In this document: piece by piece, positions 23,308 through 27,675 of the stretch
Position numbering within the stretch: the stretch's first letter is position 1
Layout: each line of letters starts with the position of its first letter
NCBI GenBank assembly: GCA_046536775.1
Contig: JAWDMD010000001.1
Location: 1 to 32,000, forward strand
Reading direction: 5' to 3'
Source: Candidatus Nanopusillus sp.
GTDB lineage: Archaea > Nanobdellota > Nanobdellia > Nanobdellales > Nanobdellaceae
Length of the DNA: 32,000 bases
The notes under the pieces: model-generated
Database searches by the model: none
Told to the model about the DNA's origin: nothing
Seen by the model: the letters and a program-made list of their open reading frames with translations, nothing else
Translations under genes and position numbers: made by a program

Positions 23308-24048
23308 TTATACTTTTCTAAACAATACTAGAAATTCTGTATGGACCAATTCTAAATTTCTTGGTCTAAAAACCTTTTCTTTTTCATACATCCATTTTCT
23401 ATAAAAATTCTCATATACTCCAATAAATAAGAATTTATCATTTGAATCTAATAATTTTAATATAGATGTTATATTTGGCAAAAAAGATACAAAATATCCA
23501 CCAAATTTTAACGAATTATATATATGATCTAAAGTATTCCAAGGATCTGGTATATCCAATATTATTAAATCTATATCTTTTTCATCAATTCCTTCATTAA
23601 TATTTTTTAATTTTAATTCTACATAATCTAATAATTTTAGTTTTTCCAAATTTTTCTTTGCAATATTATAAAAATCTTTTCTAATTTCATATGAATATAC
23701 TTTTCCATCTGGTCTTACAGAATTTGCTAAATATGATGTTAATATCCCAGAGCCAGTTCCTCCTTCTACAATTTTCATTCCTGGATAAATATTTACTAAT
23801 GAATATAACAACCCAATATCTTTTTCATGAATTGTTTGTGGTCCTCTTTTTAAATATCTAACTAAATCATTAAAATTATTTTCTAATATTAAAAATTCCT
23901 CATTCAAGTGCGATTTAACTATACTACCAGCTTCCCTATTCAAATCCTCTTTTTTTATTATCCCAAAATGTGTATTAAAATCTTTATCCTTATCTACTAT
24001 ATAAAATTTTTTACCAGTTTTTCTATGGATTATTATCATAAATTTCAT
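23308..24048 (-). CDS. trmI: tRNA (adenine-N1-)-methyltransferase TrmI (GCD14 family)
   Basis: The sequence is RGPQTIHEKDIGLLYSLVNIYPGMKIVEGGTGSGILTSYLANSVRPDGKVYSYEIRKDF...ILDIPDPWNTLDHIYNSLKFGGYFVSFLPN. The SAM-binding motif is GTGSG and the family motif is D.PdPW. Confidence 0.85.
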   Translation of the reverse strand: MKFMIIIHRKTGKKFYIVDKDKDFNTHFGIIKKEDLNREAGSIVKSHLNEEFLILENNFNDLVRYLKRGPQTIHEKDIGLLYSLVNIYPGMKIVEGGTGSGILTSYLANSVRPDGKVYSYEIRKDFYNIAKKNLEKLKLLDYVELKLKNINEGIDEKDIDLIILDIPDPWNTLDHIYNSLKFGGYFVSFLPNITSILKLLDSNDKFLFIGVYENFYRKWMYEKEKVFRPRNLELVHTEFLVLFRKV

Positions 24049-24113
24049 ATATAGAAAATATATATGAAAAATATGTTAGTAAACACTATAAAACTTTTTA
24101 TTATGAGTATTAT

Positions 24114-24653
24114 ATGATAGTAGCTACAAGTTATTTAGAAGAAATAATTAAAGAAACCTATAAAGAAATTAAAGAACATTTAAATGAAGAAGGAATAAAA
24201 GTTGATCCAAAAGCAAATTTAGAAATAATTAAAAAAGAAATAAATCCAACTAATTTAGATAACTTGATATCTTCATTTATAATAGAATTAGGAAAGTTCT
24301 TAACTTTACCTAAAGAATTAAAGGCTTATGCACACATAAAATCTAATATTTATTCTTCTCTAAAATCATATAATGTACCACCGTCTGCACTTTATGTTCC
24401 CTCTATTAATACAATATATGTATATTTACTGAGAGTCTTAAATAACTTACCATGTTTAATAGATGCTAAGAATAATCTTGAGAAAGAATCTCTAGATAAT
24501 GTAGTTAAAAAAATTTGTTTTCATAATAGAACGTCTAAGACATCAAAAACACTATCACCTTTTTACGATGTAAGTGCTGAAATTCTTATTACACCAACAA
24601 CAAAAAATTTGTCATCAGATGAAGAAATAATAAAAAATATTTTATACGAATAA
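24114..24653 (+). CDS. Gluzincin-like family, paralogue 1, N-terminal fragment (split gene)
   Basis: It is homologous by eye to the N-terminal two thirds of the 25247 and 26902 genes. The leader is LEEIIKETYKEIKEHL (compare LDSIIKKSFENITKHL and LDDIIKKEYKDINAYF). The motif YVPSINTIYVY compares with YNPITRTIYIA and YSPFLRSIYIK. SSDEEIIKNIL compares with NNIEEIISRPL. It ends at a TAA that overlaps the next ATG. Confidence 0.55.
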   Translation: MIVATSYLEEIIKETYKEIKEHLNEEGIKVDPKANLEIIKKEINPTNLDNLISSFIIELGKFLTLPKELKAYAHIKSNIYSSLKSYNVPPSALYVPSINTIYVYLLRVLNNLPCLIDAKNNLEKESLDNVVKKICFHNRTSKTSKTLSPFYDVSAEILITPTTKNLSSDEEIIKNILYE

Positions 24654-25060
24654 TGTCACATGAAATAATACATACTTTAAATAGAAGTTTAAATCTTCCC
24701 AAATATATAAATGAATATATAGCATCAGTATTAGAAACTTTATTGTATTTTAAATTAAATCTTAGAGATAATAATAAATTGGATAAAAAGATATATGAAA
24801 TTTTATATACATATAATCCACATTATAAAACCCTAAATTCTACCAAATTATCATATAAAAATACAGAAGATATAAAATCCCAAAAAGAGCTTATTGAAAT
24901 TTTAGAAGGTCTAATGAAAAAAGACCCATATTCCCTTGGAAGATATACTGGATATTATATTTTAGAAAAATATGGTCCTGAAAATATAAGAATAAAAGAT
25001 ATATATGAAAAACTTATAAGTGATCATTATTATTTTTTAAAAGAATACTTTAAACAGTAA
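24653..25060 (+). CDS. Gluzincin-like family, paralogue 1, C-terminal fragment carrying HExxH
   Basis: It starts MSHEIIHTLNRSLNLPKYINEYIASVLETLLY. This is HExxH followed by lP.yiNE.iA, which resembles the peptidase_MA_2-type pattern HE..H...lP.WlnEGlA.y. Confidence 0.6.
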   Translation: MSHEIIHTLNRSLNLPKYINEYIASVLETLLYFKLNLRDNNKLDKKIYEILYTYNPHYKTLNSTKLSYKNTEDIKSQKELIEILEGLMKKDPYSLGRYTGYYILEKYGPENIRIKDIYEKLISDHYYFLKEYFKQ

Positions 25061-25246
25061 AAATATTATTTTTTATGGTGTTTTTATCAATGACGATATT
25101 GTTAATAATATTAAACTTCTTATAATATAATCCTAAAGAATCAAAACTTCCCAGAATTCTAAAAATCATAAACATTATATCCAATTCTAGTATACTAATT
25201 TTTGGATAATAAAAAATATATATTTTACTGTTATTACCTAATAATT

Positions 25247-26056
25247 ATGAATACAATTGATAATTTAGATAGCATTATAAAAAAGAGTTTTGAAAATATT
25301 ACAAAACATCTTTATAAAAATGATATAAAATACAGAAGTCCCAAATTGCGAATAATGGAATCTACATGGTTATTTCGCAATATACCATCAATTATAGTAT
25401 TTTCTTCACCAATCGTTACTGGAGCCCTTTCTTATATAGATCCTTCCTTATTACCATTATATTTATCTACATTTCCTATGGTAGCATTATATCTATGGTC
25501 AATGGAAGATATTCGAATTCCAGAGGGTTATAATCCAATAACAAGAACAATTTATATTGCAAAAAAACCATTAGGAAGAGTTATAGATAGAATAATAGAT
25601 GATTTGAGTTCTAAAAAAATAAATGGATCTTCTGTTATTGGTTTAAATTCACCCATAAATAATAAAATAATATACCCATTATATATAGATAGTAATAATA
25701 TAGAAAAATCTGTAGCAAAAGCTGTCTCTGATATTATAATAGGTCATGGGATTTCACATTCTATAGTCGGAGAATACGAGCACACAGCTTCTGCTTTGGG
25801 AGATTTAATATATTTGAGTATGAATAAGTTAGATAGATATCCTGAAACGCATAAAATTATAGAAGAAAATGTAAGAAAATGTAAAAATGAAGAAGATTAT
25901 GTGCTAATGAAAGATCCCAACTATTCCGGATCATGTTATATAAATACTGTTTTACATAAAAATAACTTTTCAATAAATATAAGAAAGAAAATAGAAAAAA
26001 TTAAATATTTGTCTGAAGAAGATATTATAAATGAAATAAAAAGTTATAAAATCTAA
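25247..26056 (+). CDS. Gluzincin-like family, paralogue 2, membrane-anchored, degenerate metal motif (HGISH)
   Basis: Two TM helices are IPSIIVFSSPIVTGALSYI and LPLYLSTFPMVALYLWSM. Then come GYNPITRTIYIA and IIIGHGISHSIVGEYEHTASALGDLIY, where Gly replaces the catalytic Glu. I moved the start to the ATG at 25247, with a TATA-like aatatatatttt about 27 nt upstream. Confidence 0.6.
   Translation: MNTIDNLDSIIKKSFENITKHLYKNDIKYRSPKLRIMESTWLFRNIPSIIVFSSPIVTGALSYIDPSLLPLYLSTFPMVALYLWSMEDIRIPEGYNPITRTIYIAKKPLGRVIDRIIDDLSSKKINGSSVIGLNSPINNKIIYPLYIDSNNIEKSVAKAVSDIIIGHGISHSIVGEYEHTASALGDLIYLSMNKLDRYPETHKIIEENVRKCKNEEDYVLMKDPNYSGSCYINTVLHKNNFSINIRKKIEKIKYLSEEDIINEIKSYKI
25959..25982 (+). repeat. 24-nt exact DNA identity with 27539-27562 (paralogue patch encoding NNFSINI)
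   Basis: aaaataacttttcaataaatataa occurs at both positions. A second exact patch, agcttctgctttggga (16 nt), occurs at 25786-25801 and 27366-27381 and encodes ASALG. Confidence 0.9.
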
Positions 26057-26093
26057 TTGAAATAAAAAATTTAGATAATACAAATAATATTTT

Positions 26094-26693
26094 TTATAAC
26101 ATTTTTATTGCAGATATAATTATATCTATCGCTATTGCTAATAATATTAAACCCCCCAATTTATTTAGAATAATTAAATTCTTCTTTCCAGCTTTTTCCA
26201 ATATTAAAGTACTATTATAAATTATTATATAAGAAACTAAAAATGCTGAAGACATAGATAAAAATAGATATATTAAATTGAGATTTTCAGATGTATATAT
26301 TAATGTTGTTGTAATAACGCCGGGACCTGTAATTAATGGAATAGCTAATGGGGTTGCAATAATATCTTCTAAAGATTCATTATTATCTTTTATATTTACA
26401 TGAGATGGAATATCTTTTACTAATATTTCAAATGCAATATAAAATAAAAATATTCCTCCTGCGATCCTAAAATCTATTAAATCTATTCCTAAAACTACTA
26501 AAAACCAATTACCAAATAAAAATATTATTAACCATAATATATAGGCAATTAAAAAAGATCTGTTAATTGCATATCTTTTTTTATCTATATTTAATCCTAA
26601 AGAATCAAAGATTGATTCAAAAATAAATATATTGGGAATAGTTCCTAGTATAATAAACATAGTAATAAATACATTAATATAATTCTCTATCAT
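26094..26693 (-). CDS. MarC-family (UPF0056) integral membrane protein
   Basis: 199 aa with about 6 TM helices. The family signature region is IIATPLAIPLITGPGVITTTLIY. Confidence 0.78.
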   Translation of the reverse strand: MIENYINVFITMFIILGTIPNIFIFESIFDSLGLNIDKKRYAINRSFLIAYILWLIIFLFGNWFLVVLGIDLIDFRIAGGIFLFYIAFEILVKDIPSHVNIKDNNESLEDIIATPLAIPLITGPGVITTTLIYTSENLNLIYLFLSMSSAFLVSYIIIYNSTLILEKAGKKNLIILNKLGGLILLAIAIDIIISAIKML

Positions 26694-26901
26694 AAACTAA
26701 GTATACCTTCACGAATCTTTTAAAATAAATACCTTTGTATTTGTTTTTTAAATTTGAAAAAATTATCTCATAAATTTAGGATATAATATTTATAAGAATT
26801 ATTTTTATTACTATATAGTAATGATCTAATCTAATAAAAAATTAGATGATATAATAAAAAAGGAATATAAAGATATTAACGCTTATTTTAAAAACCTAAA
26901 T

Positions 26902-27675
26902 ATGAATAAAAAAGCAGGACTTATAATTAGAGGAGGAATTAAATTACCAGAACATATTATTTATTATTTATTTTTGGGAACTATAATAAGTTTATGGGCA
27001 ATTTACAATCCTACAATCTATGTACCAATAAATTATGCAATATATGCTACACTTTTTGGCTTTCAAATACGAAAATATGATAAGTCTATCGCATATTACT
27101 CACCATTTCTTAGATCTATTTACATTAAAAAGAACAATATAAAAGAAAAAACAAATTATATAATAAATAAGATTTATTCTAATAATATAGAAATAAAAGA
27201 AGATAGTATTATTGCAATTAATTTTTTCATAGATAATATAGTATATTATCCAGTATATATAGATAAAGATAAAAATAATATAGAAGAAATTATATCAAGA
27301 CCTCTTATAAAGAGTGCTTTAGCTCATGAAAAATCTCATCAAATTGTTGGTATAAGCGAGATAAAAGCTTCTGCTTTGGGATTTTTAGTATATTTTGATA
27401 TGTATAACTTATATAAATATGAAAAAGCTAAAGAAGTTGTAAGAAGAAATATAAAAAGATGTATGGAATATGTTGAAAGTAATAATAGGTATAATCCTTA
27501 CACTATTGGAGAATGTTATGGAAATATTGTCTTATATGAAAATAACTTTTCAATAAATATAATAGAAGAAATAAAGAAACTTAAACATATGAAAAATAAA
27601 AATATTATAGAGAAAGTAAAAAATTATACTCTTAATTACTCAAATGAAAATATTTTAAAATATTCTTTGAATTAA
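26902..27675 (+). CDS. Gluzincin-like family, paralogue 3, membrane-anchored, intact HExxH (HEKSH)
   Basis: The TM helices are IIYYLFLGTIISLWAIY and VPINYAIYATLFGF. Then come YYSPFLRSIYIK and SALAHEKSHQIVGISEIKASALGFLVY. The C-terminal region KRC...NPYTIGECYGNIVLYENNFSINI is shared with paralogue 2. The in-frame sequence upstream (26830-26901) still encodes the family N-terminus but lacks a usable ATG. Confidence 0.6.
   Translation: MNKKAGLIIRGGIKLPEHIIYYLFLGTIISLWAIYNPTIYVPINYAIYATLFGFQIRKYDKSIAYYSPFLRSIYIKKNNIKEKTNYIINKIYSNNIEIKEDSIIAINFFIDNIVYYPVYIDKDKNNIEEIISRPLIKSALAHEKSHQIVGISEIKASALGFLVYFDMYNLYKYEKAKEVVRRNIKRCMEYVESNNRYNPYTIGECYGNIVLYENNFSINIIEEIKKLKHMKNKNIIEKVKNYTLNYSNENILKYSLN

Follow-up and report, generated by a model that had tools for sequence, protein, structure and literature searches.

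What do the three related genes around a MarC-family gene of Candidatus Nanopusillus sp. encode, and are they still functional? The genes lie at positions 24114–27675 of the first 32,000 nucleotides of contig JAWDMD010000001.1 (assembly GCA_046536775.1), and this whole 32,000-nt stretch is referred to below as the window. Candidatus Nanopusillus is an obligate hot-spring ectosymbiont belonging to the Nanoarchaeota, and the GC content is ∼24% all along the window. The initial annotation described the genes as divergent paralogues of an uncharacterised gluzincin-like (HExxH) family, each in a different active-site state. We compared the three paralogues (P1, P2 and P3) with relative genomes and contigs (L001–L017) and with homologous proteins (P0002, P0006, P0020, P0021 and P0026). 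The explanation to which we attach slightly better than even confidence is that the family derives from a minimal zincin/gluzincin metallopeptidase (M48, M56 or minigluzincin type), evolves fast and is largely degraded in this genome. The open reading frames (ORFs) and motifs on which the argument depends are the following.

24114–24653, plus strand: P1 N-terminal ORF, 179 amino acids (aa), covering the leader helix, two paired amphipathic helices and the Y.P....IYV strand, and closed by a stop that a frameshift has created.
24632–24637, plus strand: P1 frameshift site, A6 here and A7 in the intact allele (DNA comparison with L001).
24653–25060, plus strand: P1 C-terminal ORF, 135 aa, starting with MSHEIIH (HEIIH at 24659–24673), followed by NEYIASVLE and the DPYSLG module.
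25247–26056, plus strand: P2, 269 aa from the ATG of 'MNTIDNL', with HGISH at 25745–25759; E178-HTAS and the Cys pair are retained.
26821–26901, plus strand: ancestral 5' end of P3, with ATG at 26821–26823, TAA as codon 3 (26827–26829) and then the leader helix LDDIIKKEYKDINAYF, outside the ORF.
26902–27675, plus strand: remaining P3 ORF, 257 aa, with HEKSH at 27325–27339 (H142, E143, H146), E153-IKAS, C187 and C205.

P2 and P3 are recognisably similar by BLASTP (36% identity over 179 residues, E 1e-32), and by the same method P1 showed no significant similarity to P2 or P3. When the profile of the P1 orthologues was aligned to that of the P2/P3 orthologues with hhalign, a probability of 97.3% (E 2e-11) was obtained over 241 collinear columns, with HExxH falling on HExxH, EYIAS on EIKAS and DPYSLG on NPYTIG. 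The alignments thus reproduced the shared plan proposed from the DNA alone, namely the leader, Y.P....IY, ASxLx..Y and the C-terminal module. The two short DNA patches reported as identical between P2 and P3 were also found, both in register, 1580 nt apart, and both above the longest match seen in 100 shuffles (15 nt).

25959–25982 and 27539–27562, plus strand: identical 24-nt patch encoding (K/E)NNFSINI.
25786–25801 and 27366–27381, plus strand: identical 16-nt patch encoding ASALG.

As judged from these alignments, P1, P2 and P3 are paralogues of one small protein family. Coordinates, motifs and similarity searches agree on three homologous genes flanking the MarC gene, and a search for further paralogues across the window returned none besides these. 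A chance origin of HExxH was rejected, as the motif occupies an aligned, conserved column across the family.

The family is narrowly distributed. A profile search of 1.84 billion representative proteins gave 19 clusters at 50% identity, three word-indexed searches of 5.8 billion sequences gave 20, 4 and 27 proteins, and the recovered contigs all have 22–26% GC. A scan of a genome collection with profile A1, which uses narrow peptide patterns, finds close relatives only and is no census, gave matches only in Candidatus Nanopusillus metagenome-assembled genomes (two species genomes). Scans of Pfam, NCBIfam and PHROGs with single members, with all 26 alignment members and with profile consensus sequences gave no match. 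The suspicion that this is no characterised family but a lineage-specific one is in agreement with these counts; by the sequences recovered, the family is found only in Nanoarchaeota of the Nanopusillus type.

Does the HExxH motif mark a zincin-type site? In a census of 60 members, HExxH is intact in 44, reads HGxxH in four (P2 of the close clade) and has lost its His pair in 12. An acidic residue (E/D) opens the next helix in 58/60, and A-S follows three residues on in 46/60. Despite a dN of 0.3–0.7, 45 of the 60 members retain the HExxH Glu. The nine P1 relatives that have no His pair have lost A-S too, and P0026 (HEVTD) is without the second His and without the acidic residue. This joint loss of His pair, A-S and acidic residue is as expected if the three make up one site. 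The conserved Cys pair (C187 and C205 in P3, on adjacent predicted helices) is also lost jointly, and only in the P1-HExxH subtype, so the two Cys may serve a role of their own as a pair, for example as a disulfide.

The predicted order of structural elements is compatible with such a site. The AlphaFold2 model of P3 (pLDDT 76.5, pTM 0.75) has strands at 64–67 and 72–76, a helix at 77–93, strands at 102–106 and 116–120, a helix at 127–149 that carries HEKSH (142–146), and a helix at 153–167 starting from E153. In the model of an intact P1 (pLDDT 80, pTM 0.84), HEIIH sits inside a predicted helix at 168–192. E/D-x-x-A-S opens the next predicted helix in both (E153 in P3, E200 in P1). Minimal gluzincins have the order backing helix, strands, active-site helix, ligand helix.

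Among proteins of known structure, selecase (MJ1213) was the top sequence match in the Protein Data Bank (PDB) for profile A5 (E 0.098), collinear over 85–97 residues, and none of the other weak PDB sequence matches was a protease. This alignment spans the backing helix, the strands, the HExxH helix and the +7 ligand position. With profile A1 and filters off, selecase scored 17.3 bits (E 0.025); its E-values ranged over 0.025–0.22 with A1 and A5, and A3 gave E 7.4. None of 2000 shuffled selecase sequences reached the real score with A1 or A5, and hhalign against selecase gave a probability of 76%. Selecase itself matches the Pfam families M56, M48, SprT-like, YgjP-like and M78. The ligand spacing is also the same, HELLH-LKYG-KY-H in selecase and HEKSH-QIVG-IS-E in P3, with the third position at +7 after the second His.

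Several results weigh against a zincin origin. Foldseek searches of the PDB with the P3 and P1 models gave best E-values of 0.66 and 1.3 with no protease in the top 50, and the P3 model searched against BFVD gave a best E of 0.4. The highest TM-score, 0.30 to the HExxH protein 3cmn (a 'putative hydrolase with a novel fold'), was taken as noise. No curated peptidase family of Pfam or NCBIfam matched; Peptidase_M48 appeared only at E 0.1–0.11 and M56 not at all. At default filter settings, searching the PDB sequences with A3, A2 or A1 brought up no protease. The selecase similarity is borderline and compositionally biased. Projannalysin and proabylysin, the other two minigluzincins, did not rise above shuffles with A1 or A5 and reached p ∼0.04 with A3; hhalign against a three-sequence minigluzincin profile gave 42–44%, and the P1 profile alone gave no signal. 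The complete HExxH is missing in 16/60 members, and a dN/dS near 1 implies no strong constraint on the putative catalytic core.

Much of this could be explained if the family were not derived from a protease at all, but had an alpha/beta plus helical fold peculiar to this lineage, where HxxxH and the following E/D make up a structural site or a non-proteolytic metal/ligand site, with HExxH arising convergently in a proteome rich in K, I, N and E. Two confident models without a Foldseek match, profile scores below every curated threshold, the repeated dispensability of the catalytic Glu and His, and a sole sequence link (selecase, E 0.025–0.2) that the other two minigluzincins do not share are all in line with this possibility. 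However, a purely structural His pair would not need the Glu that most members keep, the strand/helix order and the third-ligand spacing fit minimal gluzincins, and the His pair and A-S are lost together. We therefore consider a non-protease fold unlikely, and a zincin origin of the family slightly more probable than its opposite. The gluzincin-like label is plausible, being supported by the co-loss of the motif residues, the predicted order of elements and a borderline profile match to selecase, but not at the level of fold, since Foldseek recovered no zincin and M48 stayed at E 0.1.

Are the three genes intact in this genome? In P1, the HEIIH motif and the downstream region annotated as lP.yINEyIA (NEYIAS) are present, but they do not belong to one gene here as had been supposed: there are two ORFs, overlapping in TAATG, with a frameshift between them. 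Intact P1 relatives are single proteins of 306–314 aa, and P0021 among them is 93% identical. L001, also 93% identical, carries A7, and P1 of the window has therefore a 1-nt deletion in the poly-A run. L017 (Ga0167616_1011828), which comes from another metagenome dataset and is 98.3% identical to window positions 23723–25177, has the same A6 allele of P1 and in addition a second 1-nt deletion near codon 28, GGAATAAAAGTT to GGAATAAAGTT, at an A4 run. In L007, P1 has an independent 1-nt insertion (A6 to A7) at another A-run near codon 41. The A6 deletion, the second deletion of L017 and the insertion of L007 amount to at least three separate frameshift mutations of P1 in this clade.

A homopolymer sequencing or assembly error is very unlikely to lie behind the split. 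None of the 77 A/T runs of ≥6 in 18 other long ORFs of the window is frameshifted, and the allele recurs in L017. These in-frame runs, the A6 allele shared by L017 and the independent frameshift of L007 indicate that P1 is a genuine pseudogene, recently inactivated; by this DNA comparison it is a frameshifted pseudogene both in this genome and in its sub-lineage. The same mutations could also be taken as a contingency (phase-variable) locus, in which the poly-A tracts of P1 switch by slippage during host interaction, as different A-runs carry two independent frameshifts among close strains, one in the window and L017 and the other in L007. However, at A6/A7 the tracts do not exceed the length of 145 similar runs elsewhere in the window, and the second frameshift of L017 (A4 run) on the same allele is a signature of irreversible decay. 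Phase variation is accordingly a very improbable explanation.

P3 has lost its start region. Its HEKSH motif and the shared modules are present as described, but the leader helix lies upstream of the ORF, behind the TAA at codon 3, a codon that is TCA in L007 and L008. No in-frame ATG, GTG or TTG was found between this TAA and 26902. By its sequence, P3 could be made only without its leader, from the internal Met at 26902, which has no obvious ribosome-binding sequence in front of it. The P3 leader of the window (26840–26870; compare 4470–4510 of L007) also misses 12 nt, GAGGTAATAAAA, and the same short form is present in P0006; in relatives the gap is flanked by near-identical direct repeats, so that it resembles a slipped-strand in-frame deletion.

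P2 is the one copy with an unbroken ORF. Its motif is HGISH as annotated, with the catalytic Glu replaced by Gly, and the same HGISH is seen in the close strains L001, L007 and L009, whereas the more distant orthologue of L002 has HELSH. The ORF is unbroken in 4/4 close strains, with a dN/dS of ∼0.4–0.6 within the close clade; these two observations make a non-catalytic role possible for P2. With HGISH, P2 could possibly bind metal but would not catalyse, and would be at best a non-catalytic binder. The P2 ORF as listed opens at a TTG (25202), 15 codons before the ATG used by the orthologue P0020; this extension (25202–25246, …FYCYYLII) appears to be a translated promoter-proximal AT-rich element like that upstream of other family genes.

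With P1 a pseudogene and P3 deprived of its start region, the picture of three active-site states of a working set was overstated, and the active-site differences partly reflect decay.

How stable is this locus among relatives? The gene order in the window is SecD-like, endonuclease IV, tRNA m1A methyltransferase (GCD14/TrmI), P1, P2, MarC, P3, LysRS and P-type ATPase. The interposed gene is a MarC-family member as proposed, with a full-length match to PF01914 above the gathering score (E 9.1e-36; 123.6 bits against a cutoff of 23.9; residues 4–198 of 199).

26094–26693, minus strand: MarC-family membrane protein, 199 aa (Pfam PF01914), a neighbour outside the P1–P3 family.

The LysRS ORF as listed begins at TTG 27741; its orthologues begin at an ATG six codons later (MEDKDL...), and the true start is therefore probably 27759.

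The order TrmI, P1, P2, MarC, P3, LysRS is kept across genomes and the copy content varies, as the following relatives show.

L009: P1, P2 and P3 all intact.
L001: P1 and P2 intact; the contig breaks off within MarC and does not reach P3.
L002: P1, P2 and P3 present; P1 without both His ('PAIWS'), P2 with HELSH.
L005: P2 absent; P1 without HExxH.
L006: P1 and P2 absent; P3 a multi-frameshift pseudogene in its N-terminal half.
N. acidilobi type strain (Nps_01265 to Nps_01280): a single uncharacterised gene separates LysRS from MarC; no gene lies between MarC and TrmI.

The gene order of N. acidilobi is that of the window minus P1 and P2, and its gene in the LysRS–MarC gap, Nps_01270, has one predicted transmembrane (TM) segment, no arCOG and no peptides in proteomics (Wurch et al. 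2016, Supplementary Data 1). As this strain has no genes at the position of P1 and P2, these two are strain-variable. In L011, MarC and a family gene are retained as a divergent pair, and in L012 a family gene adjoins LysRS. Three further sets of metagenome contigs of ∼22% GC (L010, L013/L014 and L015) have 2–3 family genes in tandem; all the tandem members of L010, L013 and L015 are without the hydrophobic helix pair and all have HExxH and E..AS. Some family members carry a ∼40-residue insertion between the HExxH helix and the Glu helix.

The accessory character that had been ascribed to this region is thus confirmed, with P1 and/or P2 missing in L005, L006 and the N. acidilobi type strain, and the comparison of neighbourhoods revealed a conserved locus between TrmI and LysRS with a variable copy number. 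For the functional link to MarC, which had been offered as speculation, the comparison gives conserved position only: MarC is strongly constrained and occurs whether or not P1 and P2 accompany it. For P1–P3 themselves, no partner, substrate or regulator was evident.

Strain-variable presence, fast evolution and the lack of an assigned function could also be expected if P1–P3 were cargo of an integrated virus or mobile element. But the genes always occupy the same chromosomal position between housekeeping genes, their GC content is like that of the surroundings, no integrase, flanking repeats or adjacent tRNA was seen, and there was no PHROG or BFVD match. We regard this origin as extremely unlikely.

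How fast do these genes evolve, and does the rate indicate function? We applied one Nei–Gojobori procedure to the family genes and to four flanking genes. For P1–P3, dN/dS was about 0.3–1.4 with orthologue identities of 30–57%, whereas for MarC, TrmI, LysRS and endonuclease IV (AP endonuclease) it was 0.06–0.14 in almost all pairs (0.06–0.10 for MarC alone), with 89–96% amino-acid identity between clades at a dS of ∼0.3–0.4. The P1–P3 proteins change ∼10 times faster than those of their neighbours, which supports the fast evolution suggested in the initial annotation. The ratio is alike high in leader, core and C-terminal module; a region-specific dip that would mark a constrained catalytic core was not seen in any of these three protein regions. 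At the observed divergence, neutral substitution would have produced 13–23 stops, and 0/5000 simulations stayed stop-free. As the ORFs are open, P1–P3 are not long-term pseudogenes. The pattern is one of rapid protein evolution with coding capacity kept and recent, local inactivation.

These rates bear directly on the possibility that P1–P3 are eroding genomic debris under genome reduction, so that none of the copies in this genome would function today. P1 is frameshifted, with a second frameshift in a sister strain; in P3, codon 3 is a stop and no in-frame start follows until 26902; P2 has no catalytic Glu; L006 and N. acidilobi have neither P1 nor P2, and P3 of L006 is itself a multi-frameshift pseudogene; and dN/dS is ∼1. 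All this would fit debris. It would not account for ORFs of 250–314 codons that stay open across lineages against the stops expected under neutrality, for motif residues conserved in >40 divergent members, for the intact P2 with its lower dN/dS in the close clade, or for the conservation of a family-specific palindromic putative promoter element (below). The open ORFs, the conserved motifs, the intact P2 and the palindrome indicate that decay is recent and local and not family-wide. We consider it somewhat unlikely that all the copies in this genome are debris.

The palindrome lies directly in front of P3.

26808–26821, no strand: perfect 14-bp palindrome TTACTATATAGTAA, whose last base is the A of the ancestral P3 ATG.

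An identical or almost identical element is found directly upstream of family genes in L002, L005, L010 and L013, and it was absent when sought before neighbouring housekeeping genes. A TATA-like box is located ∼30 nt upstream of it, and its conservation exceeds that of the coding sequences. The palindrome may be an operator on leaderless promoters.

Are the proteins held in a membrane? The initial annotation called the family membrane-anchored, with two TM helices in P2 and P3, a claim that we found to be weak. The 19-residue Kyte–Doolittle maximum is marginal, 1.4–1.6 in P2 and P3 and 1.09 in P0002 (the closest intact P3 homologue), compared to 2.0–2.5 in MarC. The hydrophobic pair of P3 has an AlphaFold2 pLDDT of 44–54, several family members have no such pair, and the equivalent segments of P1 are amphipathic.

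Putting these elements together, we propose how an intact member might work. On the predicted models, H142 and H146 together with E/D153 would hold zinc and E143 would act as the general base that activates water, while S157 may replace the Asp of the gluzincin E-x-x-x-D. The C-terminal helical module with its Cys pair would form a lower subdomain or cap, completing the domain. Some members may be attached to the membrane through the N-terminal amphipathic leader and the weakly hydrophobic pair of helices. Family copies come and go between genomes, and catalytic residues were lost more than once. We favour a role in proteolysis or regulation that the cell can do without and that differs between strains; it may be exercised at the host interface or the cell envelope.

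A more specific scenario is that the genes form an arms-race array of the nanoarchaeon–host symbiosis, in which tandem zincin-like effector/immunity proteins under diversifying selection would share the operator TTACTATATAGTAA on leaderless promoters, and copy gain, loss and inactivation would track host switches or counter-defences. We hold this to be quite improbable.

Genomes of Nanoarchaeota are ∼0.6 Mb, and almost all of their genes are housekeeping. Genes that are duplicated, long open, ∼10-fold faster than their neighbours and independently broken or deleted in sister strains are therefore candidates for strain differences, which could concern host interaction, envelope turnover or defence. 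Should the family indeed be of zincin type, it would be an unannotated branch of the minimal gluzincin scaffold, with a Glu/Asp third ligand at minigluzincin spacing, and would offer a natural series of active-site degenerations; otherwise it is an orphan fold. Either way there is a lesson for annotation, as two of the three 'genes' are disrupted in this genome. These results are of relevance to DPANN symbiosis and to the evolution of minimal metallopeptidases.

How does the family compare with known systems? In the same organism group, the Yellowstone Nanoarchaeota, a raised density of non-synonymous single-nucleotide polymorphisms was reported for hypothetical and hypothetical surface proteins (Jarett et al. 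2018, PMC6142677). The words 'peptidase' and 'MarC' are absent from the main text of that paper, and the P1–P3 family is apparently not described there.

The closest known parallel is with the minigluzincins of hyperthermophilic archaea (selecase, PDB 4QHF–4QHJ; projannalysin, 4JIX; proabylysin, 4JIU), which have served as soluble stand-ins in structural work on the M48 and M56 membrane proteases. They have the same order of backing helix, strands, HExxH helix and ligand helix, and their strand motif just before the active-site helix is similar to that of the P1–P3 family ('..IYI[ND]K..NI..'). Selecase shares with P3 the third ligand position at +7 after the second His and a Gly at +4. The third zinc ligand of minigluzincins is a His, and they are soluble proteins of ∼100 residues (PMC6925264). 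The members of the present family, on the other hand, are 250–330 residues long, have Glu/Asp and then A-S at the third position, and add an N-terminal leader with a helix pair and a ∼100-residue C-terminal helical module with the Cys pair.

The M56 (BlaR1/MecR1) and M48 (HtpX, Ste24, Oma1) proteases resemble the family in having hydrophobic helices before a minimal gluzincin core and a linker of variable length that leads from HExxH to the Glu helix. In MecR1, a re-entrant helix separates HELSH from ExxxD (PMC6925264), and the ∼40-residue insertion of some family members falls at this same place. Selecase serves as a bridge sequence to M56 and M48, since it matches both Pfam families. Unlike M48 and M56, the P1–P3 family has weak and optional hydrophobic segments and neither a sensor domain nor further TM helices beyond the core, and its motif is E-x-x-A-S instead of E-x-x-x-D. 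Finally, the coexistence of HGxxH, PAIWS, YVLSR and QEIAY paralogues with HExxH copies is reminiscent of pseudoproteases within active protease families, but the loss of the site here accompanies outright gene decay and near-neutral evolution.

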